Shown: in pieces, positions 8,840 to 60,698 of the stretch
Layout of the letters: each line of letters starts with the position of its first letter
Position numbering within the stretch: the stretch's first letter is position 1
Notes under the pieces: model-generated
Seen by the model: only the letters and a program-made list of their open reading frames with translations
What the model was told of the DNA's origin: nothing
Databases searched by the model: none
Position numbers and translations under genes: made by a program
DNA from: Cyanophora paradoxa CCMP329
Taxonomy: Eukaryota; Plantae; Glaucophyta
Assembly (NCBI GenBank): GCA_004431415.1
Contig: QPMI01000165.1
Coordinates: 186,001 to 250,000, forward strand
Direction of reading: 5' to 3'
DNA: 64,000 nt

Positions 8840-9057
8840 CTACTCGCCTGCGCGCGGCCCCGGGGGGAGGCGCCGGAGGGAGAGGGCGTTTAAGACGGCC
8901 GCGTATAGGAGCCAGGTACCGTAGGGGATGGTGCAGAAGCGCAGGCGGTGGCCGGTGAGGCGGTCGATCTCGTAGAGGGTCCAGAGCATCGCCAGGATGA
9001 GCACGAGGGCGGGGCCGGGGCGCCGCGCGGCGAAGAAGGTCGGGGTCCAGGCGTAGT
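8840..9057 (-). pseudogene. tspO: TspO/MBR protein, 3' segment
   Basis: YAWTPTFF...ALVLILAML...IPYGTWLLYAAVLN. Confidence 0.85.
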
Positions 9058-9923
9058 GGGTAGGTCGTACGTGGGGATGATCTGGAACGGGCGCCCGGCC
9101 TTGAGCTCCTCCATGGCGCGCACGGCGAGGGGCACCTCCCATGGGTTCGGCCTCGGCGGCGGCGGCCGCAGGCCCCGCGCGGCCGCCGCGGGGTTCACCG
9201 CCCAGGCAAAGTGGCGGGGCGACCCTGGGGGAGAGCTCAGCTCCCCTAGCAGGACCATGTGCAGTAGTTGTTCTTCTGTCTGTTGAACGAACGCGCTTGA
9301 AAATATTTCCAGGGTGCCCCCTGCACAATCGGGCGACGGGCTAGGGCGCCTGAGGTCCCCCCCCAGTAGGCGCGGCGCTCCTGCACAACCGCCTCGTCCA
9401 TGCGGGACAGGGACGCCGATATCTCGTCACGCAGACGCTCCAGGGCCACGTACGTCGCCTTGCGCATCCTGTGCCTGGCAAACGCGTACGGTATGGCCGG
9501 CAGCAGCCAGCCCCGCCTCTCGTGCCCCACTACGCCGCCGCCCTTGCGGTACTCGTTGATGAGCTCCGCCGCCGCCCCTGCCGCCGCTGGAGGGGCCGCC
9601 GCTGCAGGGGCTGGCCCCGCCGCCGCCCCTGCCGCCGCTGTCGACCAGCAGCCCCCCGGCCCTGTACCCGAGGACGACTACAGCGCCTCGACGGCCCTCT
9701 TGATCCCCGACGGCAGCGCCCAGGCCCCGCGCCTCGCTGATCGCCCCGACCTCTCCAACCTCGGGGCCCGCGATGAGCTGGCCGGCGCCGCCCCGGCGCC
9801 CGACGTGATGCACGACGCCGCCGACGCGCTGCGCGCCGCGTTCCGGCCGCTGCCGGCGCCCCGTGAGGTGCGTGACGAGCCCGTCGGGTCGGTCCGCGAG
9901 CTCTCGCACCTGGCCCCGTCGTA

Positions 9924-10036
9924 CGACCCTGACCTCGGAGGACGCCGCCCGTGGCGACGAGGTCTTCTCTGTCACCGTCCGCTACCGCCCGGGGCCAGGC
10001 CAGGACGCCGCCTCACTTGCCCCGGCCGGCGACCTC
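9924..10036 (+). pseudogene. Segment 5 of the seven-piece gene
   Basis: Pointers CGACCCT (9924-9930) and GCGACCTC (10029-10036). Confidence 0.8.
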
Positions 10037-10675
10037 GGCGCGCCGGAGGGCGTGCTCGGCGGGGCGGAGGGCCTCGATCCGCCGCAGCCGGTCCCGGATC
10101 CCCTCGGGCCCCAGGGCCCGCAGCAGCTCGGGGACCTCGCGCAGGCTCGCGGTGAGCTCCGCCACCTCGAGGGCGAGCCTGTCAAACTCCGCCCTCACCT
10201 CGAACTCCTCGAGCAGGGCGAACTTCGACGGCAGCACGGGCTCGAGCAGGGCGAGGAGCTCGGGGTCCCGCCCCGTCAGTGCCCGCACCCTACCCATGAA
10301 CTCAAGGGCCCCGATGCGGCGCGCCTCCATCTCCTCCATGCTCCTGCACAGGTCCGCAACGTCGCCCTCGGGGAGCGTGGCCCGCGCCCTTGCCGCGAAC
10401 CGATCCATGCTCACTAGCTGCAGGCGGCCCAGCAGGTCCCCCACCGTGTCCGAGTCCGCCCGCTGATTCGCACCGGGGCTCGTGCCCCCTTTTCTACTAC
10501 CGCTGATACCTACACCACGGGCGCCAGTGGTGGCCCCCGCTGTCGTCGTCAGCGGGGCCGCCGCCGCTGGCGGCGCCCTGAGAGCCCCCCCTCCCCGTTC
10601 GGGGGCCGCGGTCGAGGAACGCCCACCATCCCCCTGCGCATGCCTTGTTGAGGCAGTACTGTTAACCGCGCTCAT
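10030..10675 (-). pseudogene. Helical protein 5' segment with a PAH-like stretch
   Basis: RVRALTGRDPELLALLEPVLP followed by coiled coil. Confidence 0.35.
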
Positions 10676-10741
10676 TGTGACCCACGCCCCCCCCCCTGCT
10701 CCCTGAATGCGAAATCCATTCTCCCATACAAAACGCGAGGA

Positions 10742-11008
10742 CTACACCAGGTACACCGTCGCACGGAGGGGCCCTGCCTGCACGCCCAGAGCCCGGCGCC
10801 CGTCCAAGGACAACGAGGAGAGGGACAGGAGCCCCGAGGCGCGGCCGCGCGCTGGGATCCGAGAGTACTCCTCCAGCACGCCGTAGCCGCTGTCGGCGCC
10901 CCGCTGCAGGGTCCCCGTCCTGCTCCAGGCGCCAAGGGCCCCCTCCCCGCTCGACGTGTCCCAGCAGAGGACCGCCCGGGGCGGCCGAAGCTGATGGCGT
11001 GCACCTCG
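10742..11008 (-). pseudogene. Segment 7 (3' end) of the seven-piece gene
   Basis: Pointer CGAGGTGCAC; ends RATVYLV-TAG; needs +1 nt near 10975. Confidence 0.75.
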
Positions 11009-11619
11009 CGCCGACCGACATCGGCCTCGCCGCCGAGGAGACGGGGCGCGTTTTCCTCGACTGCGCCGTCAAGAGTGCCTCGGGCGAGCTCGTCGTCCTG
11101 GAGCGCGGCTGGGCGCGCGGCCGCGACCGGTACCGCCTCTTCTGCACGCGGGTGCGGCTCTCCTGGGACGGGGGCGTCGGCGACGCCGATCTGCACTCGC
11201 GGGCACGCCCGACCCTCTCCGGCGAGGCCGTCGCGGTCGTGCCCCTCGCGGCCCCCGAGGGCCACGACCTGGTCGTCGTGGGGAGCCGCAACCGCGTCAT
11301 GGCCGAGTGCCGCGCCGGGACGGCGGCGTTCGCGAGCCTGCGGCCGGCCCCCGGCAGCCGCGGGGCCGTCGGGCGCCTCGCCAACTCGTGGAGCGAGGGG
11401 ACGTGCGCCGCGCTCGCCGACGGGACCCTCGTGCAGGCCATCGACGCGGGGGGCGCGACGATCCTGCGGGAGCTGGCTCGTGGGGACGGGAGCCTCCTCC
11501 TCTCCGAGACGGGCTTCGTCGTCAACCAGCCGCTCTCGGACGACGAGCTGGCGGTCGTACTCGGGGCGGACGGCAGGGTCGCGACGCTCGTCGCGCCGAA
11601 CCAGGAGACCGCGGTGGTC
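11005..11619 (+). pseudogene. Segment 3 of the seven-piece gene
   Basis: Pointers CTCGCGCC (11005-11012) and GGTC (11616-11619). Confidence 0.75.
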
Positions 11620-11960
11620 GTGGGACGGGCGGCGGGACGTAAGGTGGCGGTGCGGGCGGCGGGACGGGCGACGGCGCCTGAGGCGGGACGGGCACGTAAG
11701 GTGGCGGTGCGGGGGGGAGAGCCGCCTGCATTATACTGCCTGCGGCACATGGAAAATTCTAGCGCCCCTGGTACGGCGGCCCCGTCAACATGGCCGGCTC
11801 CTCTGTTCTCCTAGCCGCCGCGTACGCCGTGCTGGCGATCGCGGCGATCCTGGTCTGCGCCGGCCTGTACCTCGCGCTGGCGCTGAGCCCCCCGAGCTCC
11901 AGGCGGCGATGTAGTGTCTGTATTTGTAAGAACGAACAAAGACCGTTTTTCTTTCCTGCT

Positions 11961-12070
11961 CTACGCGCCAACGCGAATCACGACGAGGCCGTTGCCGCCA
12001 AATTTGTGGTGCGGGCCCCCCACGGCCACCCCGTCGATGTAGTCCTCGTCCCCCGTCTTGGGCAGAAGGT
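11961..12070 (-). pseudogene. Gly-rich protein paralogue, 3' end
   Basis: DEDYIDGVAVGGPHHKFGGNGLVVIRV, paralogous to 5831-5920. Confidence 0.75.
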
Positions 12071-13017
12071 GGTTGTGGTCGCGGCAGTAGTAGAGTCGGA
12101 ACTGGGACTTGGATATCCACTCGCGGGCCGTGGTCTTGTTTATGTCGCTGTATGCAACCTTTGGATGGTATCCTTGATACTGGGACACGATCTCCGCAAT
12201 GCCTTCAGCATCCGGCGTGCCCGTTGACCTGACATGAAAGGCAGGCACTCTCCAGGGGATCAAGAGACGCCGATCCGGCTGAGGCTCGCCGGCGCGGGCT
12301 GCAGGGGCGGTCTTCTTCTTGCCGCTGGGCGGTCCTCCATGTCGCGCTCTCTTCTTGGCCGCCATCCGCGGCTGTTGCGCGTCGTACCAGCTGCCGGCAC
12401 CGTCGTCGTCGTCGTCGTCGCCGTCGTCGGGCACAGTGGAGGAGGAGGAGAAGATCGTGAACCGCGGCTGCGGGGTCCGGAGAAGGGGCGGCGCCGGTGC
12501 CGGCACCGGGGTCGCCTGGTCAGCCTGGCAGCCGGTCAGTGTTGTTGCATGCGCGCGCAGTGCGGGTCCGCCGCCGGCGAACCTGTTGATTGCCGCCTCC
12601 CGGAAAGTTCTCATCCGCGGCGCCCCTTTCGACTTCACAGACGTCATTCCAAATCCCCGCTGACTCTGCAAGTTCGCCGTCTAACGGCTGCAGATTCAAC
12701 TCGTAGCCAGCGGTTCTCCAGGCGGCCAGCGGTTCTCCAGGCAGTCGGGATGGCAGCGAGGAGAATGCTTCTTGCAGCGGATCGTATGGTGGGTCTTGCA
12801 GCGGATCGAACGGTTCGAACCGCGCCAAATCGTCGCTCATTCGATCGCGCGAGCTCGCGCCCGTCGCCCGCCGCGGCCGGGCGACGCCGACGTGCGCGCG
12901 CGCGGCGCCCGATCCGCGCGGTCCGTCCGGTGGTCGGTCCACGACGAAGAAGAAGGGGGGGGGTACGTGTTTTTCGCCCCACGTGACTTTTTTCGTCCCA
13001 CGGGGTACGTCATCGTG

Positions 13018-13809
13018 ATGGCGGCGGCACCAGCTGCAGCTCCGGATCCGGATCTAAACCCCGCGACTGGAGTCCAGCGGCGATGGTTTGCAATCTTCTG
13101 GGCGCTCGAGGGCGCCGGCGACGTGCCGACGGCCTTCACCCTCCACAGGACGCAGCGCCAGCCAAACCCCCCCGCGGCGCCGGCGCCGGCGCCTTACCGG
13201 ATCCCCTTCAGCGCCGCCCAGCGGGACGAGCTGCAGCGCATCCGGGACGGGCCCGAGGGCATCCACCACATCAAGCTAGACCCCCGCGGCATCGTGGTCA
13301 ACGACATCATCTCCCGACGGAAGGACTCGGACGGGAGGGAGGTGTGGCACAACCGCACGTGCGGGCCCGGGAACGAAAGGTGCACTTTTCGCATCGGAAT
13401 CATCCCCTTCGACGAGGCCCAGCGGGGCCAGATCAGGCAGGCGGTTCGCGAGTTCTTCAATGAATCGAATCCGCCGCCGAAGGCGAGCGAGATCTACATG
13501 CTACCCTGGCACGGTACGCTTTTTCCGGTACGGGAGGGGTGCACGAGGGTTCGGTACGCGCAATCGGGGACGGAGGCGTGCGCCCCGAAGCCCTGGGTCA
13601 AGTTCGCTGGCCAGGGCTCGCACGCGCCGACCTGCTGGAGGGACGAAACGCGGCAGAGGGGCCTGCTCCAGATCCAGGCCAAGGGCAACCCCTCGGGCAC
13701 GGAGGCGTGCACGCGCTTCCCGCCGGCGTACTACGGAGACCGGTGGCCGGCGGCGCCGCCCCGCCGCGGCGGTTTCTACGACAACGCCTGGCTGGCCGGC
13801 GGCGGCTAG
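13018..13809 (+). CDS. Hypothetical protein, apparently intact
   Basis: Continuous GC3-rich ORF to TAG. Confidence 0.55.
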   Translation: MAAAPAAAPDPDLNPATGVQRRWFAIFWALEGAGDVPTAFTLHRTQRQPNPPAAPAPAPYRIPFSAAQRDELQRIRDGPEGIHHIKLDPRGIVVNDIISRRKDSDGREVWHNRTCGPGNERCTFRIGIIPFDEAQRGQIRQAVREFFNESNPPPKASEIYMLPWHGTLFPVREGCTRVRYAQSGTEACAPKPWVKFAGQGSHAPTCWRDETRQRGLLQIQAKGNPSGTEACTRFPPAYYGDRWPAAPPRRGGFYDNAWLAGGG

Positions 13810-13985
13810 CTAGCTGGCCGCAGGCTCCGCCGCCGCCCCCGCGACCGCCCGGCAGAAGAAGCGGAACTCGTCATCCGACATGTCGGCCTTCATGAGGTTG
13901 CACTGGGCGCAGACGAGCCGCACGTTGCCGGGCACGTAGCCCAGCGCTGGGTCGATCCTGTCCACGGACATGTTGTAGGCTGCGG
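13810..13985 (-). pseudogene. HNH-like endonuclease 3' segment
   Basis: SVDRIDPALGYVPGNVRLVCAQCNLMK. Confidence 0.75.
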
Positions 13986-14159
13986 CGGTGCCGTAGTCCT
14001 GCTCGTAGCCCCAGTTGGAGGAGGAGGCGCCGGCGCCGCCGTAGTTGTCCTGGCTGTAGTTGTAGTCCTGCAGCTGGGCACCGGTAGCCCGCATCGACGA
14101 CGTGCGGAAACCGGCCGTATCGGCCCTGCTCCACGCTCGTGGCTGCCCGTCCAACTGCA

Positions 14160-14679
14160 CGACGACCAGGTCCACCGCGGTCGCGGCCACGTAGGCCGGG
14201 CCGAGGAGGCCCGCGAGCGTGGCGTGGAAGATGCGCATGGCGGGCTTGGTAACACCCGCCTTGCCCATCCGCCAGTACGACAGGAACCAGGCGAAGATAC
14301 CAAAGGCGATCCAGGCGAACATCAAATTGACCTTGTTCTGGGCACCCCATGTCGCCATGTTGCCGAGCGGCGCGGCCATGGTGCCGATGACGCCGTCCTG
14401 CTTGAAGGCCGCGGCCGGCCGGGCGGCAACGACGGGGGGGCGGAGTGGCACGGCCACTCCGAACTGCTGCTGGGCCCGGCCGAGGCGCGGGGCCGCGCCG
14501 GCGATGGCCGCCGCAGAGGAGTGGCCATGGCCGCCGGCGGCGGCGGCGGCCCGCTGGGCGACCATGGCCTGCGCCTGCACCTGCGCCTGGTGCTGCTGCT
14601 GGCCGGGGCGGCCCGCGTTGAAGACCTCGCTGATGGGCGCGGCGCTGTCGACGGTGGAACCGGCAGTGGGGGATGCCAT
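14160..14679 (-). pseudogene. Membrane protein 5' segment
   Basis: FAWIAFGIFAWFLSYW...LAGLLGPAYV. Confidence 0.55.
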
Positions 14680-14748
14680 GGGGGTGCTGCGGGGCTGCTA
14701 TATATATCGAACTAGGATCAAAGAAAAAAACTTTGCCCAGGTCGAACG

Positions 14749-15130
14749 ATGTCGGCCGCAAGGTACACCGCCGGTCAGGAGGACGACGTGGCGCCTGCCG
14801 AGGGGGCGCTCGGCATGGCAGGCCCCTGCCGACAGGGCTCCGAGAGCAGCGGCACCAGCGACACCCCCACAGCGGCAAATTCGTTGCCGCTGTCGTCCGA
14901 CGGCACCTCGGCGTCCCAGGCGTCATTGGAGCGCACCCAATGGACGAGTGAACAGGAATCGCTCCTGGTCGGATGGGGGAGGGCGCTGGCCCGGCTGCGG
15001 GAGTACCACCTCTCAGCCAAGCGCTTCTACTGGGCCTGGGAGTACGCGATGACGGTGCCTAGCCTCCTCCTCTCCACGACAGTGACGGTGCTAATAGCCA
15101 TTCAAACCTTTTCTGGCAAAACAGACGACT
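14749..15130 (+). pseudogene. SLATT-like two-TM protein, 5' segment
   Basis: WTSEQESLLVGW...HLSAKRFY...TVPSLLLSTTV. Confidence 0.6.
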
Positions 15131-15356
15131 TGCTGCGTGCGATGCCCTGCTCCTGCCGCGGGACGTTCGATCCTGGGACGGGCGCCTGGGCCTTCCCCGG
15201 GGTCTCCACGCCTGTTCCAGGCGTGGTAGCGGTCGCCTCCTCGCACCGACGCCGCGGGCCGCACCTGCACACGCCCGCCACGGCCGCCGCCGTCTTCGTT
15301 GTGGCCGGAACCGCCGCCGTCGCCGCCGCCGCCCTCTGGCGGCCAGCAGCAACACC

Positions 15357-15648
15357 ATGGTCGCGCCGGCGGCCTCCTGGCGCCGGACGGCGGTGATGCG
15401 CTGGATCCACGACAGCGGCTTCTCCGTGAAGGACCAGAAGTCGGCGACGCACCTGCTCATGACCGGCGGCAAGATCCGCATCCCGCCCGAGCGCGAGGAC
15501 GAGTTCCTCGCGCGCTACGCGGCCGACGTGGCGCTCGGGCACGGCCAGCTCTTCTTCGTGGAGAAGCGCACGCCCGTCTTCCGCCTCTTCGCCGACCTGG
15601 ACTTCCTGGACGACCGGCCCTACGACCTGGCCACCGACGTGCGCCCGT
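15357..15648 (+). pseudogene. NCLDV A468R-like archaeo-eukaryotic primase, 5' segment
   Basis: THLLMTGGKIRIP...FFVEKRTPVFRLFADLDF. Confidence 0.8.
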
Positions 15649-16006
15649 TGAGGCGCCGCTGGCGGCGGGCGCCCTCCGTAGAGACCGACAGGAGCGCAAG
15701 GAGCGCCACCACAAGGTACGTCTGGCCGTAGGTGATCTGGCGAGTAGTAAGTAAGCGTGCGCGGGCCGTCCGCTCTCCACTCTTACCTCGAAGGACGAGC
15801 CCGCCGCGACCAGAATGGCCTGCACGATGACCCGCCCCACGAGCGGCTTGACCGCCAGCACCAGGGCGAGCTCCAGCGCACAGAAGAGGAAGTCCTCGCA
15901 ATCCATCCGGCTCGCACACACAAGACCACCCCTGTACCCCCCCCCCTACCGCGTCGGACAGGTGGTGCGATTTATAGCGGCCATACGGCAACCGCAACAA
16001 CACAGC

Positions 16007-17292
16007 ATGGAGCCGGCCGATCTCGTATCCATCCGAACGTGCATCGAGCGTTGCGCCCCAGCTGAGGGAATGCCAGCAGGACAGGACGCGGCTGCAGGAG
16101 CGAATCGCGGTCGTCGATCGGGAGCGGGATGTGCTCGCGGGCAGGGTTGCAGTACTGGAGGCTGATCTTGCGGTGCGCCAGGTGGAGGTTGGAAGACTTG
16201 GGGGGGAGCTGGCAGCGTGCCAGGGGGAGGCTGCAAGGCTTCGGGCTGCCCTTGAGCAATGCCGGGAGAATCTGCGTGTTCAGAACGACCGGGCCAACGA
16301 AGCTGAGCGCCGGAGGGCCGTGGCCGAACAGCAAGTGCAGGCCTTGCAGCAGCAAGTCCGAATGGCCGTCGCAGACAGGCTAGAGTTCGAGCGTCGGGCA
16401 GAGGAGGCCGTGCAGGCGCTGGGGGAGGCGCGCCTTGCAGTGGAAGCCGCACGGGCAGAGGCCAATGCCGAGCGGCAGCGCCGGGTGCCCGTCGAGCAGG
16501 AGCGCGACGACGCGCGCCGCCAGCTGGAGGAAGAGCGAGGGCGCCGGGCGCCCGTCGAGCGGGAGCGCGACGACGCGCGCCGGGAACGCGACGAGGCACG
16601 CCGCCGGCTGGAGGCTGGTGAGCTGGAACGGGATCGCGCCCGGGCACAGGTGGACGCTGCAGACAACGTGGCCATGTTCGATCTGTTGGAAGGGAGGCTG
16701 CGGGACCTTCTTGAAGATCAGGACCTCGCTCCCCAGGGAAATCGAGATCTCATCCGCCAGCTTCTTGGCGTTGTCGTCGACCAGGCCGCAGATTATAGGA
16801 CTCAGGCGGCGATGAATTCTTGGAGGGTACTTGCCGAGTTTTGGCTGGGCAGATTGAACGCGGTCATTCGTTTGGTCCCTGCCGACGACCCTCTTCGGGC
16901 CGAGGTGCCTGAACAAGACGGCCGCCGCGGCCGGGTCCGTTTCCTCATGGCAGTGGTCCGTGCTTACCTGCGTGATCGCCGCCAGCTGGACGCTGCAAAC
17001 TATGCAGCCATGCACGTCCATCTACAAGGGAGGCTGGATGCACTTTTAGCACTGCCCTTTGAGCCTGCAGTGATAGAGGAGCTCCGGCAGATTCGCCAAA
17101 CCGTCGAGGCTGACAATCTTCCTGCAACAATCACTGCCTGGATTCGGGTCGTCGGGATTTTGCAGAGGCAGGTAAACCTGGACGCAAATCAGTTTCTTCA
17201 GGCACTCCGCCGCCGCATAGAACCCGCCCTCAATGGCTTACGTAATGCACTTCCCGCAGACGACCCTCTCCGGGCCCTGCTCATGTTGCCCG
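16007..17292 (+). pseudogene. Coiled-coil protein 5' segment
   Basis: Heptad region plus PADDPLRA repeats; one extra C near 16056. Confidence 0.55.
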
Positions 17293-17440
17293 TGACGAGC
17301 GAGGTCACCGGGAAGGCCCAGCAGATGCCGTCCTCGCGGTTCGCGGCGTGGCGCGAGCGCTGGGAGAACGACATCCCCTACGTGCACGAGAAGATCCTCT
17401 CGGACGGGGCGCAGCGCTGGGAGGTGCGCATCGACGACCG

Positions 17441-18785: not shown

Positions 18786-18825
18786 CGACTTGGCCGTCGA
18801 GGTGGAGGAGGGCCAGCGGGGGGAG

Positions 18826-31554: not shown

Positions 31555-32030
31555 CATCCTCTCGGACCCCGCCCTGATGTACCTCCCCGCCGACCTGACC
31601 GCCGTCGGGCAGGTCTGCCGCGCCTGGCGCGCCTGGCCGGGGGCCCGGGAGGAGCTCGCGGCGGCCGCCCTGAACGCCGCGCTGGGGCTCGGGCCTGAGG
31701 ACCCCTGCCCCCTGGAGCCCTGGGCGCGGGCCGGCTACCCGGGCGGGCTCGAGGGGCCCTCCGGGACCTCGAGGGCCGCCCCGGCCAGCCGAGCGCCTCC
31801 CTCCTCCGCATCCGCCACCTCCTGTGGGAGGAGGGGGCAGCCTGCCCGGCGGCGGCGCCCTGCGCTACCCGATCCGGGCCGCGTCGGCGGCGGAGGCGAA
31901 CGCCGCCGTCGAGGCCGAGGTGGCGCGCTTCGTCGCGGCGGGGGACGCTGTCGAGTCCGGGCTGCTCACGGGCACCGGCGCCGGGACGGCCCTGGGCCTC
32001 GCCGCCGCGTGGCAGCTGACCACGCGCGGC
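31555..32030 (+). pseudogene. F-box protein segment
   Basis: DLTAVGQVCRAWR; two G-run frameshifts. Confidence 0.5.
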
Positions 32031-32202
32031 CCCGTCGGGCGCCCTATCGTCCGTTTCATGTACTACCCCGACCAGGAGGACGAGGTCTCCCTCGACGGGT
32101 CCCCGTCGGATCCGGAGTAGCGTAGGCGCATGTCATTGTTAATGCAGTCCAGCAGTGCGCGTACTGGTCGCCGCGCGTCCGGGCAGTCGTCGGATTTCTG
32201 CA
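32025..32202. repeat. 178-bp exact inverted duplicate of 48999-49176
   Basis: Direct reverse-complement identity. Confidence 0.95.
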
Positions 32203-32721
32203 GTCCCACTCTAGTGGAGGCCGCCGCCGCCATGGCCCTCAGCTCTGATGCCTGCCCTGCCCCGCCTGTGCATGTTCGCATGCTGCTGCTTCTATATAGG
32301 CTGAACTGCCTCCGCTTGTGAGAACATGATTCTAATGCACTCCACTGCACGCCGCCCGCCCCCCCCCCACCGCCCTCCACACCGCCCCACTCAGCCCACC
32401 CAGCCCCGCGGCCCTCCCCCCTACCCTCCCCTACCCCTCCCCCGGGCCCCTCCCCCCCTACCCGCCCAACCGCTATGAACCACTTTCACAGCTGGGAACC
32501 GGTTGTGCTTTCCGAAGGCATCTGCAGCCTTAAGAGACGACCGCCGAGTCTGCTGTGGGAGGAAGCATAGTAATTCACGATGGGGGCCGCGGTCTCCTGG
32601 AACAGGACCACGCCGTAGTGGTACGCCCAGTACGCGGGGTCCCCCGCTGAGTAGGGGTTAACGGGCCCGTCGCCTCCGCGGCCACCGCCGCCGCCGCCGC
32701 GGTCCAGCAGGCGCTGATAGC

Positions 32722-33383
32722 CGTTGGGGGGTACCCTGGGGGTGACCGGGGCGACCACCCTTGCGAACGCCTCAGTGGGGGGCACGCTTGGGGTGACGGG
32801 GAACACCACGCTGAGCACCCTTGGGGTGACGGGGGCCACCACGTTGGGGGGTACCCTTGGCGTGACCGGCGCGACCACCCTGGCGAACGCTTCGGTGGGG
32901 GGCACGCTTGGGGTGACGGGGGCCACGACGCTGGCCGGCACATCGGTCGGGGGTGCGCTCGGGGTGACAGGGAACACCACGTTGGGGGGTACCCTTGGCG
33001 TGACCGGGGCGACCACCCTGGCGAACGCCTCGGTGGGGGGCACGCTTGGGGTGACGGGGGCCACGACGCTGGCGGGCACCTCGGTGGGGGGTACGCTCGG
33101 GGTCACAGGGAACACCACGTTGGGGGGTACCCTTGGCGTGACAGGGGCGACCACGCTGGCAAACGCTTCGGTGGGGGGAACGCTAGGGGTGACCGGAAAC
33201 ACGACACTGAGCACGCTCGGGGTGACGGGGGCCTCGACACTAGCCGACACCTCGGTGGGGGGTACGCTGGGGGTGACAGGGTCGACGACGCTGGGGGGTA
33301 GCCTGAGCGTGACAGGGTCAACTACGCTGTCGGGTGGTCTCCAGTCCACAAACGTTTCCAATGCCACTGACGTGACAAGTGGC
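32722..33383 (+). repeat. Fibre-protein repeat segment (GGTLGVTGATTLANASV)n
   Basis: More than 12 coding repeat units. Confidence 0.85.
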
Positions 33384-37582: not shown

Positions 37583-37822
37583 ATGCCAACGAGCTACCAC
37601 CCCGAGCTCGGGCTCCACCCGGCGACCGCCCGCCTGCTGGCCCTGCCTCCCCGCCCCGAGCAGGGCACGGCCGGCTGGCTGCAGCAGCGGGAGGGCATGC
37701 TCACCGCCAGCGACATCCCGGCCGCCCTCGGGGAAAACCCCTACCAGTCCCCAGCCGCCCTCATCCGCCGCAAGCTGGGCCTGGACCCCCCCTTCGAGGG
37801 CAACTTCCTGACGCGCTGGGGT
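37583..37822 (+). pseudogene. YqaJ-like viral recombinase/exonuclease, 5' segment
   Basis: EQGTAGWLQQREGMLTASDIPAALGENPY...TRWG. Confidence 0.88.
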
Positions 37823-38618: not shown

Positions 38619-39259
38619 CTAAACTGGGTGCTCGTTGAAGCGGGGCGGCGTGCGGACTAGGAACACGGGCGGGTCCTGCCTGGCCCTCTTCCGCGGCCTC
38701 GGCGCCGCCTCCTCCCCCTCCGCGACGGCCGCCGCCGGCCGCAGGGCCGCCGCGCGGATCTCGTTGGTCGCCTCCCCCCACTTGTAGTAGACGCTGCCCC
38801 CGAAGCGGCGCGCCACGGCCCGCGTGCTCTCGTTGAAGAAATCCCTCAGCGATGCGACCTCGCCGGCCCAGCGCCGGAGCTCGGCGATCCAGAGGGGGAG
38901 CGCCTGCTTGGGGGGGCCCGCGATGCGCACGGCGAGCAGGTTGTTGAGCAGGTCGATGCCGCACGCCACGAGCATCTGCATGACCTGCACGCGGGCCCGC
39001 ACGCGCTCCCGCCTCCGCTCCCGCATCAGCACCAGGGACTTGAAGCGTTCCTCGGTGAGCTCCTTGGTGAGGTACTTGAGGCGGATGTCCTCGTTCGAGC
39101 GGGGGTTGTACGCCGCGACGTTGGCCGCCGCCCCCTCGATCTCCACGCGCTGGACGTGCACGACGAGGCGGTGCAGCTCCGTCACGGGGCGGACGGCCTC
39201 GTGGACGTGCGGCGGGCCCCCCGAGTCCACGATGTGGGCCACGATGTCCGCAAGGCGCG
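38619..39259 (-). pseudogene. NCLDV RING-IBR (RBR) E3 ligase, C-terminal segment
   Basis: LHRLVVH...NEDIRLKYLTKELTEERFK; abuts segment 56359-56608. Confidence 0.7.
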
Positions 39260-39458
39260 AGCTCCGCCTCGGCCCCGCCCCGGGCCCCCGGCTCCGGCTC
39301 CGGCGCCGGTGGGGGCTCGGGGGCCTTGAGGCGCCCCCGCCGCCGACCGCGCCGAGGGCCTCGCGCGCCGCGCCGGCGAGGCTCATCCACGCGTCGGGCG
39401 GGGCCGGCGCGGCGCTGGCGGCGAGCTCGTCTGGCCGGAAGTCTTCGTCGACCAGCCG
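39254..39458 (-). pseudogene. Segment 2 of the seven-piece gene
   Basis: Pointers CGGCTG (39453-39458) and CTCGCGCC (39254-39261). Confidence 0.7.
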
Positions 39459-39614
39459 ACGGCGCTCAAGATGCGCGCGGGGCTCGTGCACCGGCTGGTC
39501 GAGCGCCTCGGCGAGCGCCCCAGCGGGCACAGCACCGTGCGCGAGGTGCTGGACGCCTCGGTCTACATCGGCAACGGCCTGCGCATGCTCGAGTCGGACA
39601 AGTTCTCGCCGCGG

Positions 39615-43939: not shown

Positions 43940-44832
43940 TGCGCGGTCGGTCCGCCTGGCCCGCGCTGTTCTGTGTACCCCGGTTCGAAGAGTGGATTAT
44001 AACGTGAGTATACTCACGGTTTTTGTGGGCTGAGCAGCAGCAGGGGGGGGGGGGGGGGGGGGAGGACGCACCTCAGCTGTCGTCGTCGGGCCTTTTAATG
44101 CCGCTCCCCCCCACCCCCCACCTGCGAGCAGTGGAAAGCCAGTTAGCAGATCGCGCACCTGGCAGTCGACGATGATGTTGATGATATCAACCTGCGCAAG
44201 GGGTGGTAGGGGCCGGCGCACGGCTGGGTGGCGCACCTGCTGCTGCTGCTGGCCAGCCCCTGCAGCGGCGGCCCCTCCAGCGGCGGCAGGGGCGGCGGCG
44301 GGGCCAGCCCCTGCAGCGGCGGCAGGGGCGGGGGCGGCCCCTCCAGCGGCGGCAGGGGCGGCAGGGATGATGGCCACCCCCAGAACGCCGGCGCCCACAT
44401 CAGCGGCGGCGGCCGGAACAGCGGGGCCGGCAGCCGCAGCGTTGAAGACTTTGAATCCTTTTGGGAGACGACAGGGATTCCAGAGAGCGACCCTGGCCGC
44501 CGAGACGGGGGCGGGGGCGGGGGCCCCAACCCCCCACTGGCGGACGACGGCGTTCTAACTCATGCAGGGGCGGGCGATGATGGGGCACGTGTTGAGTTTT
44601 TCCCCGCACAAGTGGCGGGCTTCATCCATTGAGCACTCCCACCAAGCGTTGCCACCGGCGGCGGCCGCAAGGTCGGTGGTTTCCGGGCCGAAGACGAGCC
44701 GCGCGCCGGCGGCAATCCGGTCCTCGTCGGACCCGGCGCACCCCCGCCCAGCGGCCTTTGCGACCGTGATCAACTGCAGCGGAGGCGTGAGGCGGGAGGC
44801 GCGCGAGGGCGGGGGGGGGGGGGGGGGGGGGG

Positions 44833-46388: not shown

Positions 46389-47659
46389 GGCGGCAGACTG
46401 CGGCCGCCGGCGCGGCGCGCGCCCGCCCCGTCTTTCTTTGTTTCTCCTTTTGTTGAATACATACGCATTTCTGCGCGCACTGCACATGGAGAGCGGCTCG
46501 GATCTGGCGGAAGGCGCACCGCAGCGGGCCCCGCGCGGCGCGGGCACGGGCAGGGGCGGCGGCGGCGGCCGGGGAAGGGCCCCGCAACAGCCGCAGCGCG
46601 GCGCGGCGGGCCCGGCTTCCTTTGCCGACACCTTCCTTAGCCGAGACTACTACTACACGTACACCACCACGGCCGCCTCGAGGTCGCGCGCCTCCCGCAC
46701 GGGCACGCCGGGGGGCCAGACGGGGGGGTCGCCGGGGGGGGCGGGGGCCAGGGCGAGGACGACGGGGCCGGTACGGGCGTCTGATCGTTCGCGCCTATTT
46801 TATGTTCACCCCGTATTATTGATTGATACGCTGCTGCTGCTGGGGCCCGGGCGCCGGGACCGGCTCCCACGGCTCTTCCTCTTCGAATTCTTCATCGTCG
46901 CTCGGTTCGAGTTCGACTAGCCTCATCGGGCTGCCGCTGGGGCCTGCTCCCGTCCAGCCCTCGTCGTCTTCGGCCAATGCCCCGGACGGCCCGGCGGCAG
47001 GGGGGGTACCGGTGGGCTCCGGGAGCGGGGCCATACCGTCTTCTTCTTCTTCTTCTTCTTCTTCCGGCCCCCACCAGGTCCACGAGCCGCCGCCCGCGAC
47101 CGCCGGCACCTCGGTGGGCCCGGCCTCGCCTTCGAATTCGTCGTATGAATACGGCGGGGGCGGTTCGCTTGAGACGCCCGCTGGCGGCCACACCCTCAGC
47201 GGCGGCGTCTGCGGCGCCGGCCCCGGGCCGGCCAGCGCGTACGGCGGCGGCGGTGCCGACACCGAGGGGCCGGCCAGCGCCGCGTACGGCGGCCGTGTCG
47301 CCGAGGGGCCGGCCAGCGCCGCGTACGGCGGCCGTGGCGCCGAGGGGCCGGCCAGCGCCGGGTACGGCGGCCGTGGCGCCGAGGAGGAGGAGGAGGAGGA
47401 GGAGGGGGGGTCGGCCAGCGCGTACACCGCTGCGGCCGCCGGCGGCGGCGGAGGAAGATCGCACAGCCGGAGCGGCTCGCCCAACCCCCCCAACGGCGGC
47501 GGCACCATGGCCCCGCGCTCGCGGAAGAGGAAGTGGAACGGGAAGTAGATCGGCAGGCCCTCCGCCTCCGAGAACTCCCCGGCCGGCCGGGCCTCGGCGC
47601 CGCCGGGGCGGTAGTAGAGGTGCAGGATGGCGGACTCCGGCGCCGGCACCTCTGTGCCC

Positions 47660-48480
47660 TCTACCTGCCCGGCGAGCTCCTTGACCGCCTCCACAAGGAG
47701 CCCCACCAGGTTGCCGTAGGCGAGGGAGAGGTAGCCGTCCGGGTGCTCCAGCACGGCCTCGGGCATCACGCGCCGCACCTCCTGCGCGATCAGGCCCGTG
47801 CGGCGCCTGCCCCCCTCCTCATCCTCTTCTTCGGCGCGCCGGAACGTCACGCCCCGGAGCGCCCCCACCTTCTCCAGGGCCCCCTCGATGACGCGCACGT
47901 CCCGCTTCAGGCGCTCGTCGGAGAAGGCCGTGATGTCGTTCTGCGCCGTGATGTTGCCGAAGGCCGTTGCCTCGGTCTCGCCCGTGGCGCCCCCCACAAA
48001 GAGGTTGCGGCTGATGTAGGCCCCACCGCGGCAGACCAGGGCGCCGGCCGGCGTTGTGGCCCCCTGCGTCGTGTTCGTGATCGTCACCACGCCCCCGATC
48101 GTTGCGGCCCCGTTTGTCAGGGTCATCGTGCCGTTCGTCGAGCTGTAGTTGCCGGTCACCGTCACGGAACTCCCCAGCGTTGCAGCCCCCGTCACGCCCA
48201 AGGTACCCCCCACCGAGGTGTTGTTGGACAGTGTCGCGACCCCCGTCACCCCAAGCGTGCCCCCGACGGAGGCATTGGCCAGCGTCGTGGCCCCCGTCAC
48301 CCCGAGCGTCCCCCCCACCGAGGCATTGGCCAGCGTCGTGGCACCGGTCACACCAAGGGTGCCACCCACAGAGGTGCCAGCAAGTGTGGAGGTCCCAATA
48401 ACCTGCAGGGTCCCCCCCACAGAGGTGTTGCTTAGAACGGAGGCCCCCGCATTGAGAGTTTTCAGGGTTGTGGTCCCGGC
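47660..48480 (-). pseudogene. Tail-fibre-like protein with peptidase S74 chaperone domain (segment)
   Basis: GGTLGVTG repeats, then FSDERLKRDV...GLIAQEV...PEAV...YGNLVGLLVEAVKEL. Confidence 0.9.
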
Positions 48481-48589
48481 ATCCTCTCCCTCCGGGGCCG
48501 CCCCTGCCCGCAGCGGCCCTCCCCGCCCCTCCTCCTGCTGGGGCCGTCAGGCCAGGTCTGCGGCCCCGGCCAGCGGCGGCCCCGGCCTT

Positions 48590-52375: not shown

Positions 52376-52755
52376 CGGCGACCCGGCCCTCATCGACGAG
52401 ATCGCGCGCACGCACGGCAAAGCCTCGTTCTTCTCCGATGCCGTGGAGGAGATGCGCAACTCCGGCGCCGCCCCGCGGCCGTCCGCGGCGGCGGCGGCCG
52501 CTGCCGCCGCGGGCGGCGCCGATGCCGCCCCCATCCCCGCCGGCGGCGGCATCTGCATGCTCCCCAACACGCCTGCCGTCGCCCAGGCGGCCATACGCGT
52601 CTTCAAGCTCCGGGAGGAGACGGAGGCCGCCCGCGCCAGGCACGCGGAGGCCGACGCGCAGGCGGCCGAGGCCGTCCGGCAGCACGAGCTCGCGGAGGCG
52701 GCGGCGCACCGGGAGGCCGCCGAGGCGAATCGCCGGGGCAAAGAGGAGATTGCCC
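52370..52755 (+). pseudogene. Bro-family protein internal segment
   Basis: GGDPALIDEI motif followed by coiled coil. Confidence 0.5.
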
Positions 52756-53175
52756 GAGCTCCTCTTCGTGCGGGAGAGGGCGCTCCTCCCGGGGACGCAG
52801 CGGGCGCTGGAGGCGCAGCGCGAGTCGCTCGAGGAGCGGGCCCGGCTGAAGGAGGCCATCATCGAGTCGGTGCGGCTGGAGCAGGCGGCCCTCCGCACCG
52901 AGGCCCGGGCCGTCGGCCTGGCGACCACGTCCGAGGAATACAAGGGGCTCATCGCGCGGGCGCGGGATCTGATGGCCCAGGCCGACCAGGTGAAGAAGGA
53001 GGGGAACGACGCGATTGGCATCGTCGCAGCGGCTGGTGGCGGCGGGGTGCGCGGCATCATCGCCCAGGCGGCGGCGGTGGCGACCTCCTCGGCTGCCGCC
53101 CGCTTCCCATGCCCCGGGCAGGACTGCCGTGGGTTCATGGGCCGCCGCCTCCGCGGCGTGCGCAAGTGCGGGGCC
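52755..53175 (+). pseudogene. RBR E3 ligase, pre-IBR segment
   Basis: ELLFVRERALLPGTQ...FPCPGQDCRGFM...KCG. Confidence 0.75.
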
Positions 53176-54670: not shown

Positions 54671-55010
54671 ATGTCCGGTGGTTCGTTGACCCATCTCGCC
54701 GCCGTCGGCGCCCCCGATGCGTACCTTTTCGGTGCGCCGGCGGTCACCTTCTACAAGGGCGTGTACCAGCAGCACACCAACTTCGCCATGGAGTTCATGG
54801 AGACGACCTTCAACTCGGCCAACTACGGCCACAGCGTTACCGCCGAGATCATCCGCACCGGCGACCTCCTCTCGAGCATGTACCTCGTCCTGAAGATCCG
54901 CCCGCTCCTCAACGGAAGCAACACGGGCAGCGTCTTCTTCGTCGACAAGCTCGGGTACGCCATCATCAACAAGATCGAGCTCTCCATCGGTGGCACCCTC
55001 ATCGACACCA
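54671..55010 (+). pseudogene. MCP: NCLDV major capsid protein, N-terminal segment
   Basis: LAAVGAPDAYLFGAPAVTFYKGVYQQHTNFAME...RTGDLL...IELSIGGTLID. Confidence 0.95.
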
Positions 55011-55922
55011 TCCTGCCGGTGTTTGCAGCACCGAACACCACCGATGCGACGTCCAGCATCGTGCCGACCTGCTCGGCAGTCGCGCGGCCCGCGTCGAGCT
55101 CGCGCCGCAGCAGGGCCGGCCACGCTGCGGCCGCCGCCTCTTCCTCCTTGGCGGCGGCGCAACCGGTGAACCATGCAAAGGGAAGGCAGCTCGCGACGGC
55201 CTGCGCATGCGCTTGAAGTCGCCGATCATGCCGAGGAACTTGCGAGCCACGCGCACCGCCCCCTCGATGCTCTTGTGCGTGCCGAGGTTCGCCTTGCCAC
55301 ACTCGATGTTGTCGAAGCGCACCAGGTAGCGGCACGGGCCCCCGGGCTTCCTCGCGGGCACGCGGTACACGTAGGGCGGCAGGTTGCGGCCGGCGGCCGG
55401 CGCGGGGAGCTGCAGCGGGGAGGCAGCGGCCTCCTCCTCGTCCTCCTCCTCCTCCTCGTACTCCTCGGTGCCTTCGCAACAGCGGCGCGAGAGCTCACGG
55501 GCGCGGTGCGCGCGGCGCTCCCGGTCAACGCACGCTGGCACCGCAACGACCGGCTGGCCTTCTACGACATCTGCATCCTGCGCACCGTTGCGCCGACGGC
55601 GCAATCGCTCCTTGCCGGCCTCCGGGGCGGTCCGGCCGGCGCGCCGCTCGTCGAGGCGCTCTCTCGCATTTTGGCGGGAAACCGACGGACCGTCGAGAAC
55701 CTCGCGACCGTCCTCGCCAAGGGCTTCATGTCCTCGTACAAGATGAGGATGGCGGCAGGCGAGCGGCCGGAGGCGCGGGCGGGCCGCCTGCTGCTCGACC
55801 TGGCGGCCCACATGACTTCCCACGCCGGCAGCGACGCCCAGGTGCGTGCCGCGGCGTGTCGCATGATGCAAGGCTGAAAACTGCCCGCGCGCAGGTGCGC
55901 CCCGCGGCCGCCGGATAGCAAC

Positions 55923-56359
55923 ATGGCGTGTCACATGATGCGCGCGCCGCAGATCATCATCGCCGAGGGCGGGGTTGGGCGCGCCGCGCGCGTGCTCGGC
56001 ATGCACATGGCGATCCTCGGGCTGGTCGACCCCGCAGACCCCCTCGTCGACTTTGACATGTGGGTGGCGCTCCGAGGCGACCTCCGCCCGCCGCCGGCCG
56101 CTTCGGATCTGGCGGCGGCGCTGGCGGCGGCGGCCCGGGGCCCGCGGGGCGGATGCCGCGGCCCGCCCCGCCCTCGCACGTGCCCGTCGTCGGGCAGCCC
56201 GCGGGACCGCCGCCACCGCCGCCCCTCCCATCGTGGCCCGGCGACCTCGTCGCCGCCCTGCTGGTCGGCCTCGTGCCGGCGTGGGGCGCCGCCCCGAGCG
56301 GCCTCCCCGACCCCGACCAGGAGGCGCGGGCCCTGCTGGCGGCGCGGGGGCTGCGGCTG
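55923..56359 (+). pseudogene. Segment 1 (5' end) of the seven-piece gene
   Basis: ATG at 55923 (or 56153); ends ARGLRL; pointer CGGCTG at 56354-56359. Confidence 0.6.
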
Positions 56360-56608
56360 CGGGAAGCCGCCGCACGGGACGTCCCCCCGCGCCCGGTCCA
56401 GGCCGCCGTTGCGCCGGTACCAGTCGTAGTAGTGGGGGTTGTGCACGACGCCCTGCTCGACCCTCCCCGTCTTCCACGAGAAGGCCGTGTGGCAGGCCGT
56501 GCACCACATCTGGTCGCAGCCGCTGATCTTGAAGATGAGGGCGCGGCACGAGGGGCAGGACTTGCAGTCCCGCAGCATGGTGGAGACGGAGGCGGCGACG
56601 TCCGGGTC
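56359..56608 (-). pseudogene. RBR E3 ligase, RING2 segment
   Basis: KSCPSCRALIFKISGCDQMWCTACHTAFSW...HNPHYY...DVPCGGFP. Confidence 0.9.
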
Positions 56609-56794
56609 ATCCCGAAGCGCCCAATCTATGTCTACTCCTTCGCCCTCGACCCCGAGGACTGGCGCCCGACGGGGACCCTCAACTTCAGCCGCATCAACGA
56701 GGCGCTGCTCAAGTTCAACATGCCCGTGGGCGACAACGGAGAGCCCGCCACGCCTGCCGGCGAGATCTTCATCTTCGCCCGCTACGTCAACATC
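56605..56794 (+). pseudogene. MCP: NCLDV major capsid protein, near-C-terminal segment
   Basis: IYVYSFALDPEDWRPTGTLNFSRI. Confidence 0.92.
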
Positions 56795-58082
56795 GGCGCC
56801 GTGCTGAGCTCCAAGGCCGAGCCCAACGTCGTGCTGGACTCTGGCGTTCTGCGCGCGGGCCTGGAGCGCATGGGGGTCGACGCGGTGGACTCGGCCCTCC
56901 AGGAGCTGGAGCGCGCGGGGAGGGCGGACCGCCTGGCGCCCGCGTCCGAGTTCCGGCGCCTGCTGGACCGCTGGCTGACGGCGCAGACGAACGACGAGTG
57001 CTTCGACGTCCTCGCGGACCCGATCGGCCGACGGGTACCCGCCTTCTTCGACGATCGCCGGCAGCAGCCGCGCACGCGCGTGCTCGCCGAGTGGCTGAGG
57101 GTGCTGCAGGGTCGCGGTACGTCTGCAGCCGTGCGGGGGTCATGAGGATGCAGCAGCAGCAGGCGGCCGCCCGCGCGGCAGGGCACTGGCACCATGGCCA
57201 CCAGTTCAACTATTGACACACACACACACACACACTAGGCGAGGGAGGGCGGGTCCACGCGGCGGCGGCGGTGGCGCCGCACCGCGGTCGCTTCCGCCTC
57301 CGCCGCCGCCGCCGCCGCCGCCGGTCTCCTCTCGAACCGGCGGGCGGCCGGTCCGCAGCGGCCCACGCCCGCCGCGTCGCCGGGTCGGCGGCGCTCGGCG
57401 CTTCGTAGCGCTCGAAGGAGCCCGACGAGACGCTGCTGCTCACGTCGTCGTCGCTGTCGTCGCAGGCGCCGGCGGCGCCACTGTCGGCGCTCCGGCGGGC
57501 GGCGCGGCGGGTGCGGCGCTGGCGCGCGCGTGCGCGCTCGCGCTCCAGGGCGGCCCGTCCTGGCACGGTCCCGATCGGCCGTGCAGGCGGGTAGGCAGGG
57601 AGCGGGCGGGTCTGGCTGCTGACGATCTTCAGCCGCCCGAGGGCCTCCAGCTCGGCGTGCGCGTCCGAGTCGGTCTCTGTATCGTCATCCTCGACGTCGT
57701 GCGGCGCCGCCGCCGCCGCCGGCAGGGGCAGCGCCATTTGCGGACGGACGGACGGGGGTCCGTGTCGGTGTACCCCTTCCCCACCTCCTCCCCGCCGCTC
57801 CCGGCCGCGCTCCCTGCCGGCCCGGGCTCGGATGAGGGCACAATGGACGCCTCGGACAACTAGGGCGGCCGCCAACCACACCCTCACCCCCGCCCCCGGC
57901 TGGGGCGGAGGCGGGTCCCTCCATTCGTCCGGGCGGTCGGCGATGAATACAACCCGACCCCCCGCTTCCCGCCTCGCGCGGAAGACCGTTTCGTGCATTA
58001 TTGTTCATTCTGTGATAAAAACAGACCCGCGCCCGCGCCCCTGCGAGCTTTTTCGCACACACACACACGTAATTATCGCACC

Positions 58083-58200
58083 ATGCCGACCACCGAGGTC
58101 TGGTTCTCCGGGCTCCCCGAGGGGCGCGTCACCGTCCTCAGCTTTGACGTCGGCATTCGCAACCTCGCGTACGCGCTGGTGTCCCGCGAGCCGGATGAGA
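58083..58200 (+). pseudogene. RuvC/poxvirus A22-like Holliday junction resolvase, 5' segment
   Basis: VLSFDVGIRNLAYAL. Confidence 0.8.
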
Positions 58201-60088
58201 TTCGGCCCAGGCGGGGCGCCAGCGCCAAAGGTAGTCGACTGCCCTCTGGAGCTCGTCTTCCGTGAACATCCCCCGGAAGTCCCCAAGAACTTGCTCGATT
58301 GAGGGGAATGGTTGGCCATGGTAATCGTTTTCTATCCAGACGGCGAGCTGCTCGACGAAGTCCGGCCTGTCTCGCATGGATGCATGGGCAATGCGTGGTT
58401 TCTCCCCGACCAAGAATTCCCCTCTCTTGTCCAGTTCCCGGATGGCCTGCCTGATCGCGGCCCAGTTCCCCAACAATGTGGGCCAATCACTGCCGGTCGC
58501 CGACACCGGTTCTGCAGCTGCCTGGGCCATCAGCTTCCTCGCAAGGCCGCCCAAGTCTAGGCTGTCTGGATCGTACTTCTTAAGCTTAAGCTTGGGAGGG
58601 GGGGCCGGGGTTTTTCCGCGCAACGTCCAAGGCAAATTGAACGTTCTGTAGTGCCGTCGCGTCCGTCATGGGGCATGGCCAGGGGGTTGCTGCCATCGAC
58701 GTAGACGGGCCGGCCGGCCCTCCGGGACAGGACGGGGTGGAACAGGCTATTTGACCTGAGGGGGACGCTGAAAAAGAGCACTGTGTTGCCGGCCTCGAAA
58801 TCGGGCCGGGGCGGGCGGGGGCCAGGGGGCTCATTTTCCGGCTCGAGCACGTAAAAGCACTGCAGGCGGCCGAAGTAGGGCTCGCCCCCGAACGGCCCGG
58901 GCGCGGCGGAGGAGCAGCGGCCCAGCGGCGGCCCGCCCCCGCCGGCGGCCGAGCGCCCCAGCCGGCGGACTCGGAGCTCGGTCGCCGCATCCATCGCCGA
59001 GCTGGAGGCGGCTCGTGTCGCGCCGGACGCAATGCGGTCGACGGGGCCGCACCCGGTAGGGCGGCTCCACGTCCTGGATGTGCTATCTCACGGCCGGCCT
59101 TTCCCGGCAGAGGAGCTGGTGGGGGGGGTACCCCCCATTGTAAAACAAATAATGACCGACGCGTCCGGGCTGCCATCGCTTCCGGCGGACAGGGGGCTCT
59201 AGGCCGCCGGCGCCGGCGTGGCGCTTTCCGAGCCGCCGGCCGCCGCCTCCATCGCAGCCCTGATGCGCGCCACGTCGGCCATCGTCAGGACCTCCGTCGC
59301 GGGATAGAGGGGGTGCGCGTGCGGGCGGCCCCGCCCCGACGCGAGCCCCCTCGACGCGTGCTCGAGCCGCAGGCAGTCGCGGAAGCGCCCCCGGACGCGC
59401 ACGCCCTCGAGCGGGACGGCGAAGAAGAGCTCGTCGAGGGGCAGCTCGTCCAGGTCCGGGCCATGCAGCAGCAAGAACGCGAGTCGTCTGTCGGCGCCCC
59501 GCGGAGGGGGCCCGGGGCGGGCGGCGGGACGGCCAAGGGGTCGGCCGCCGCCGCCGCACCGTTGTCCTCTGGCTCCGAGGACGGCGGCGAGGGCAGTGGC
59601 GAGGAAGGCAGTGGCGCCGGCGAGAAGTAGGCCCAGCCCCTTTGGATGTTTTTTTTCTAGGGTCTCTTATCGCGAGAAGACCGGCCCCGTATATATATAT
59701 ATATATACACCGCACCATGGAATTGATTCCACTCTTCGACGGACAGAGGGCCACGGGCGCGATGGCGATTACGCCGTACGACCGGTACATGAAGGTCCTC
59801 AACAAGGGTGATAGCAGCAAGCACGCCGGCAACGAGATCTCCGAGCTCTCCCCGCACGAGCGCGAGGCCCGCAAAATCGCCCGCGCCGCCCGCGCCGCCG
59901 CCATCGAGGCCGCCAAGCAGGAGCTGGAGACGAAGATGATGATCGAGGAGGCGTCGAAGGCCGCCGAGGCAGTGAAGGCCGCCGGCCGCTCGACAGCCGC
60001 CTGCTCGCTCCGCCGGAAGAAGAAGTCGTCGTCGTCGACGGCGACGGCGACGACGAAGCGGAAGAAGAAGTCCGTGCCGATATCGGCG

Positions 60089-60571
60089 ATGGCCGGGCCC
60101 CCGGCGCCCCCCGTGCCCCGCATCCTCTTCCAGACGTGGAAGACGCGCGAGGTCCCCGAGCGTTGGCGCGATGCGCAGGCCTCGGTCGTTCACGCACACC
60201 CCCACTGGGAGTACCGCCTGCTCACCGATGAGGACAACGACCGGCTGGTGGCCGAGCACTTCCCCGAGTTCCTGGCCCGCTTCCGCGGCTTCCGGTACCC
60301 GATCCAGCGCGCCGACGCGATCCGGTACGTTGTACTGTACGTCTTTGGGGGCGTCTACCTCGACCTCGACTACGTCTGCGTGCGCCCGCTCGACGGCGTC
60401 CTCGAGTCCATGCCGGCGGACCGCTCGGTCGGGCTCCTGGCCAGCGCAAACCCCGGGGCCGTCACCACCAACTCCATGATCGTCGCCCGCCCGGGCTCCC
60501 CCTTCTTCCTCGAGTGCATCCGCCGCATGCAGCGCCCGCGGCCCTTCTGGGCGTGCACGCGCCACGTTGAG
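60089..60571 (+). pseudogene. GT32 DXD glycosyltransferase, 5' segment
   Basis: PRILFQTWK...QRADAIRY...GGVYLDLD. Confidence 0.9.
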
Positions 60572-60698
60572 GGCGAGGTTCAGGAGGAACAGGAGCACGA
60601 CGGGGTCGTGGCGGGCGGGGCGGCCGGCCGGTGCCCGTGCCGCGGCGGCGGCGAGGGCCAGGGCGATCAGCACGTAGAGGATCCCCCACGCGATGGGG
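60566..60698 (-). pseudogene. tspO: TspO/MBR protein, middle segment
   Basis: PIAWGILYVLI...LFLLNLALN. Confidence 0.8.

Follow-up and report, generated by a model that had tools for sequence, protein, structure and literature searches.

Giant endogenous viral elements (GEVEs) have been described in Euglena (PMC12455990) and Acanthamoeba (PMC12210455). These elements decay by truncation, deletion, duplication, invasion by transposons and introns, and chimerism between insertions (PMC12455990, PMC12210455). Here we analyse a 64-kb stretch of DNA from Cyanophora paradoxa CCMP329 (contig QPMI01000165.1 of assembly GCA_004431415.1, positions 186,001 to 250,000), hereafter the window, in which a TspO/MBR gene lies in pieces about 51 kb apart. 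Like the Euglena and Acanthamoeba elements, the window carries hallmark genes of nucleocytoplasmic large DNA viruses (NCLDV; Nucleocytoviricota), namely capsid, PCNA, primase and YqaJ, in a non-functional state within a eukaryote genome record. The passages considered from the two reports mention no sub-genic pieces that were shuffled and randomly oriented and that keep both sides of a break, as seen in the window. We consider it probable that the window is mostly one viral genome that was shattered into near-blunt pieces, re-ligated randomly by end joining and inherited in the host genome.

Chromothripsis is defined in the same way (PMC13390643). The window differs from it in the viral substrate and in the sub-genic size of the pieces. 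The closest anatomy is that of the arrays formed after biolistic delivery of lambda DNA into rice and maize, where pieces average 410 bp, the four join orientations are near-uniform and joining is attributed mainly to non-homologous end joining, with 25% of joins blunt and 50% showing 1-4 nt of microhomology (10.1101/379644). Those arrays are artificial and multi-copy, whereas the window appears natural and mostly single-copy, and its break sides can be matched for that reason. A natural analogue is offered by mosaic inserts of plastid and mitochondrial DNA in nuclear genomes, which also contain many foreign fragments, joined partly by end joining; unlike the window, they consist of organelle DNA from many copies (PMC6215612). 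The small outlier chromosome of Ostreococcus shows massive virus-associated rearrangement that was once likened to chromothripsis (PMC5498103), a comparison rejected by a 2026 paper (PMC13390643). It consists mostly of host repeats and translocations with small viral inserts only, and is in this respect unlike the window. The literature searched, which lacks most subscription papers and supplements, yielded no account of an endogenous giant virus in shattered form, so that a prior description is possible. PMC12085832 and PMC13213038 have no bearing here.

Two TspO/MBR pieces and their fit

Two pieces match the TspO/MBR family model:

60566..60697, minus strand: middle piece (PF03073 model 40-81, E 2.7e-4; 21.1 bits alone)
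8840..9057, minus strand: C-terminal piece, stop codon included (PF03073 model 82-141, E 1.2e-6; 30.7 bits, cut-off 24)

The pieces lie where the initial annotation had placed them, in the same order and on the same strand, with 60697-60566 as the in-frame upstream piece. The middle piece is broken at its 3' end. The C-terminal piece, which by itself passes the family cut-off, is broken at its 5' end; its first whole codon is at 9055 and its stop codon is 8842-8840. No continuous open reading frame (ORF) within the window contains the whole domain. The initial annotation had also proposed that no residue is lost at the join, and this holds. The model coordinates of the pieces are adjacent (81 then 82), with neither gap nor overlap. 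When the C-terminal piece was compared by HMMER with 1.84 billion representatives, three matches came back, the best of which (P0003) is a whole TspO of 150 aa, and the two top tblastn matches of P0003 in the window are the two pieces, aligned at adjacent residues with 39% and 51% identity. Mouse TSPO (2mgy) aligns from residue 93 onward to the first residue of the C-terminal piece, and the break lies inside the family's conserved motif region.

The register of the join was tested with a hidden Markov model (HMM) built from four sequences. With X at the break, the joined protein scores 75.6 bits in the no-indel register, as against 67.4-70.7 bits for five other spacings; the alignment needs no indel, the first of two outcomes that the annotation had named as refuting its reading. 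Nor do the halves look like different paralogues: both match P0003, each is single in the window, and their GC contents at third codon positions (GC3) are alike (0.95 and 0.94). By our own arithmetic, the coincidence of two independent breaks falling within 2-3 bp of each other in a gene of ~450 bp has a probability of about 1%.

The 2-bp overlap noted in the initial annotation is real, bases 9057-9056 being identical to the last two of the middle piece. It is uninformative, because an overlap of at least 2 bp is found in 20.8% of 19,942 random position pairs, and at this chance level it is no evidence of a pointer or of a staggered cut. The evidence lies instead in the codon register, the level at which the fit is shown to be lossless. 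Lossless breakage, as first suggested from these two pieces, is thus supported at codon level, and it is extended by a RING/IBR pair and by two weaker pairs of repeat-protein pieces, described below.

The 5' third of the gene (model 1-40) was not found in the 64-kb window. A look-alike of the 5' motif at ~60770 (plus strand), considered as an in-place inversion, was rejected as the TspO HMM gives it no score. As judged from these matches, the gene would be split into at least three pieces, with no intact copy in the window.

The break is also present in contigs of sequencing runs. Twenty DNA runs of one organism label contain 0.98 of the words of 56000-64000; no RNA run is among the runs listed as containing this region, and the RNA-like runs X22 and X23, which may belong to another strain, carry no information on expression. 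A 5-kb contig covers 57333-62345 without substitutions in three of three DNA runs and so crosses 60566, and contigs cross 9057, again without substitutions, in both runs considered (2/2). The TspO break is therefore no assembly artefact. No joined form of the gene was seen in the contigs of five of five DNA runs, and contigs drop rare forms. A joined form of similar abundance would be expected from the way contigs are built to split them at the break, which argues against the presence of such a form.

Next to the TspO pieces lie the following sequences:

60110..60565, plus strand: piece of a DXD glycosyltransferase (PF04488, GT32), C-terminal part missing
60701..61171, plus strand: piece of an unknown gene, tail-to-tail with the TspO middle piece
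9058..9258, minus strand: N-terminal piece of an unknown and unrelated gene, joined out of frame to the front of the TspO C-terminal piece

The broken 3' end of the middle piece meets the broken 3' end of the GT32 piece head-to-head, and the C-terminal piece meets the unrelated N-terminal piece, for which no Pfam or PHROG match was found. A GT32 HMM located the C-terminal GT32 piece neither beside the TspO C-terminal piece nor elsewhere in the window. The TspO pair thus looks non-reciprocal.

A mosaic of giant-virus gene pieces

Window GC is about 0.62-0.78 throughout. Segmentation with a self-trained codon model gave 127 coding segments with a median of 246 bp, only six of which run from ATG to stop. 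Seventy-five of the 126 neighbouring pairs abut (lie within 8 bp): 37 are same-strand, 21 head-to-head and 17 tail-to-tail. This strand mix is compatible with random joining under two nulls (p=0.21 and 0.80). Under a stricter rule, the window has 65 switches versus 12, 12 and 19 in three control sets of ~61 kb, made from 11 of 161 fetched intact viral loci and containing 15-26 complete genes among 66-79 segments.

Pfam scans covered 550 stop-free frames of at least 70 aa as well as the 127 coding segments. The following NCLDV-type genes were recognised:

54677..55012, plus strand: N-terminal piece of a double-jelly-roll capsid-family gene (Capsid_N 1-93/207, E 1.7e-16)
56609..56790, plus strand: internal C-terminal capsid-family piece (Capsid_NCLDV 114-151/196, E 3.4e-9)
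2079..2600, minus strand: PCNA, cut off after 45/128 of its C domain (Pfam)
15447..15617, plus strand: primase (AEP_C962R) piece, model 1-58 of 190
39444..39602, plus strand: primase piece, model 118-178 of 190 (E 0.0056), tail-to-tail with RING/IBR piece 3
37676..37819, plus strand: YqaJ exonuclease piece, model 2-56 of 150

The two primase pieces are 24 kb apart. Further partial matches are to a lipase (56-109/140), GT34 (33-98/238) and DUF7197 (47-67/245), and near-whole coverage is seen for three short domains, S74, PF04488 and PCNA_N. In the PDB, the matches of the capsid pieces are confined to capsids of algal viruses: 1m4x carries the label PBCV-1, and 8rbs we take to be from a coccolithovirus. 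For RING/IBR, IMG/VR holds 471 relatives. A search with PCNA returned itself and one 35% match only, and the truncated PCNA product is listed in EukProt, which makes the source a eukaryotic genome record. Judged by this gene content (capsid, PCNA, primase, YqaJ and RING/IBR), the window DNA is giant-virus-like. Its capsid-family and other NCLDV-shared genes place its derivation in the Nucleocytoviricota, and its conserved genes lie in pieces, not as the whole, largely collinear viral genes of a GEVE.

IMG/VR scans with the TspO C-terminal piece, PCNA and the N-terminal capsid piece confirmed no intact close relative. A related hunt gave two distant loci for the TspO alignment, none for a 19-nt pattern and 0 of 2047 candidates for the capsid piece. 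The ESM Atlas held no usable match for RING/IBR piece 3, and the match P0004 was excluded as a repetitive false hit.

Three further pairs of pieces were examined at their ends. For the RING/IBR gene, an HMM of 511 positions was built from 146 intact homologues.

52741..53145, plus strand: NCLDV RING/IBR piece 1 (HMM 87-204)
56360..56608, minus strand: RING/IBR piece 2 (HMM 234 to about 317; the alignment, 234-319, is at 56608-56351)
38628..39443, minus strand: RING/IBR piece 3, with a variable lead-in and HMM 332-459 at 39209-38787
32700..33377, plus strand: piece of a repeat-rich fibre protein, candidate partner of 47503-48477
47503..48477, minus strand: C-terminal fibre protein piece with S74 chaperone domain
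44251..44370, minus strand: piece of a proline-rich repeat gene, candidate partner of 9566-9667
9566..9667, plus strand: piece of a proline-rich repeat gene that continues the repeat register of the piece with its end at 44251

RING/IBR piece 2 ends (56360) with a proline kept in 198 of the 209 homologues having the motif (251 examined). Piece 3 starts in frame at 39443 with the commonest next residue (93/209), followed by an aromatic residue (W, Y or F in 134/209). The two pieces have an overlap of 0 and are 17 kb apart; they were likely directly adjacent in the original gene. This pair, too, looks non-reciprocal by reading. In the fibre pair (33377 plus, 48477 minus) and the proline-rich pair (44251 minus, 9566 plus) the repeat register fits, again with an overlap of 0. 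Together, the four overlaps (2, 0, 0 and 0) agree with a blunt-break null, for which P(0)=0.50, with the reservation that n is small and two of the pairs were picked by eye. Neither a PHROG search of 77 proteins nor a regular-expression search for partner pieces added a convincing pair, and self-tblastx of the window was too noisy to be used.

Origin of the mosaic

Our preferred reading builds on the viral identity of the DNA, the adjacent profile positions, the real new junctions and the strand mix of the joins. A giant-virus genome would have been cut into hundreds of short pieces, the TspO pieces being likely both sides of one near-blunt double-strand break. The pieces would then have been re-ligated in random order and orientation into the genome of a eukaryote, by non-homologous end joining that resected the ends little or not at all. 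Which nuclease cut, how the ends were ligated and that integration took place are inferred; the EukProt record and the presence in 20 runs of one organism label bear on a chromosomal location indirectly. The joins look non-reciprocal, which needs several free ends at once; we envisage one burst acting on mostly one genome copy. The event looks recent, because the matched pieces are free of stop codons and their GC3 is 0.90-1.00. As in chromothripsis, orientations are random (in a comparison whose control is not GC-matched) and breaks are near-blunt (4/4 pairs). For a single event, which in chromothripsis shows in non-reciprocal joins, a walkable derivative and copy-state oscillation, the window gives mixed signs: two pairs look non-reciprocal, and fragment F (below) is an exception. 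Two of eight profile-testable neighbouring pieces are present in the window, which suggests an element several times larger and, at a few hundred kb, about as long as the genome of a giant virus; the estimate is rough, as short pieces can be missed. Under this reading the TspO gene is dead, and its split has left a scar, not a gene that works in pieces.

Several points weigh against such an origin. The window contains no host flank, so integration is presumed. All 20 runs are flagged as possible sources of the window DNA. No close intact relative was found, the best having 68-71% identity, on the IBR piece, so that base-level losses at the junctions may be hidden. Homologues back only two pairs, the two repeat pairs chosen by eye being weaker, and the RING/IBR join precedes a variable region. 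The control loci have 40-54% GC compared with ~70% in the window, and segmentation is noisier where GC is high. Part of the same-strand switches come from errors in the sequence (1-bp insertions at six places in 32 kb of run contigs), and divergence can also give partial profile coverage. Lastly, at least one piece does not come from a single blunt-cut molecule:

32025..32558, strand not assigned: fragment F, whose first 178 bp equal 48999-49176 and whose last 32 bp equal 42166-42197 (exact, inverted)

Fragment F likely stems from a second viral copy or is a templated copy. Its two matches are the only exact duplications above 30 bp that pass the low-complexity filter.

If an integrated virus had been scrambled stepwise by inversions and translocations over a long time, with lossless breaks, a single such step would leave reciprocal junctions, which the TspO pair and, by reading, the RING/IBR pair do not show; the pieces show neither stop codons nor GC3 decay, and there are only those two exact duplications. 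We regard this course as unlikely, even with repair-type changes persisting in the region (in run X16, a 14-nt templated insertion stands in place of 5501-5741), a DDE transposase at 690-1742, the chance that fragment F is a later templated copy, and the erosion and rearrangement described for GEVEs (PMC12455990, PMC12210455). Joining of pieces that stem from many copies of the virus, the situation in biolistic arrays, is favoured by the overlap of fragment F with its neighbours at both ends and by the presence in the runs of another capsid-like sequence, which has diverged (four differences over 58 bp). On this account, or if the pieces came from two TspO paralogues elsewhere in the genome, the fit would be coincidental. 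Only 210 bp of the 64 kb are duplicated in this manner, and independent breakage would hardly produce two exact fits backed by homologues together with two in repeat register, so that we see a slim chance for a mixture. An assembly or library artefact is hardly credible: in five separately assembled runs, listed under different studies, many junctions are covered by contigs 4-5 kb long, with full depth and no substitutions, and what speaks for it are small indel differences between window and run contigs, together with the possibility that these runs are the window's source.

In the scrambled genes of ciliates, consecutive segments share pointer repeats and an unscrambled DNA form exists. By analogy, the window could be an encrypted functional genome, reassembled at the DNA level and open to reactivation. 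Information at the tested breaks is indeed fully kept and the frames are clean. Ciliate-type pointers are nevertheless absent (three of four pairs overlap by 0 and the other by no more than chance gives), the joins show a random mix of strands, and both TspO breaks are crossed by unbroken contigs in five of five DNA runs, rare forms being dropped from contigs; we hold programmed unscrambling to be very improbable. Still less probable is splicing, with the 51.5 kb between the TspO pieces as a giant intron or with trans-splicing. The pieces are on the same strand in the correct order, and a GT donor occurs at one of the three possible cut positions, yet the acceptor would be AC, CA or CC and in no case AG. 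In the remaining three pairs, two of which have their pieces on opposite strands, both the GT donor and the AG acceptor are lacking. An AG acceptor thus occurs in 0 of 4 pairs.

The shattering itself might have been a dedicated host response to giant viruses, in which the incoming genome is cut to sub-genic blunt pieces and virtually all of these are ligated into a heritable scrambled array that can never be reactivated. Such an array could serve as sequence memory against the virus, for example as a template for small RNAs or methylation. We think this quite unlikely.

Giant-virus inserts are usually read as arriving whole and eroding slowly. A shattered entry, if true, would be another route, in which the virus is disabled immediately but its sequence is preserved. 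The window would then offer a natural example, still legible, of foreign DNA that underwent chromothripsis-like end joining. Virus detectors that rely on ORFs would under-call shattered elements, and such elements seed protein databases with chimeric or truncated "host" proteins, such as the truncated PCNA on record. A standing question thereby becomes testable: how viral DNA gets into the genomes of protists, through integration by the virus or through capture and repair by the host.

Further observations in the window and the runs

Run contigs have one extra base at 18440, 19658, 19789, 19827, 19851 and 61275, where indel errors of the window mimic frame switches. In region 5483-5742, run X16 is without 5501-5741 and has a 14-nt insertion templated from just upstream, presumably a polymerase-theta-like repair scar; X2 has the window form. 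Two tiny low-depth contigs of run X21 match 4582-4742 and 4767-4977, and these are its only real matches in 1-20000. Contigs in the window have depths similar to those of unrelated contigs from these runs, a resemblance that was not used, as depth is not copy number. Capsid piece 56615-56672 is matched over 58 bp, with four differences, by another contig of ~4.9-5.8 kb in the same runs, which may represent another capsid-like gene or a viral element elsewhere in the organism. Diverged paralogous stretches with 74-76% identity are found at 5836-5929/11969-12062 and 22192-22285/62505-62598, one of them in glycine-rich genes.

The DDE_3 transposase (690-1742, minus strand, E 5.7e-10) adjoins direct repeats of 165/87 bp at 149-653. 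A SET-domain gene has a likely N-terminal piece at 48561-48779 (plus strand), judged by its motif only. The likely C-terminal piece is at 25765-25908 (plus strand; E 0.0034, local HMM). A piece of an HNH/endonuclease VII gene (13864-13968, minus strand; PHROG E 5.6e-13) is fused behind unrelated sequence, and 49105-49599 (minus strand) is presumably a piece of a PD-(D/E)XK-like endonuclease. The longest apparently uninterrupted coding stretch is an ORF of 1012 aa with two kinase-like regions (33894-36932, minus strand).

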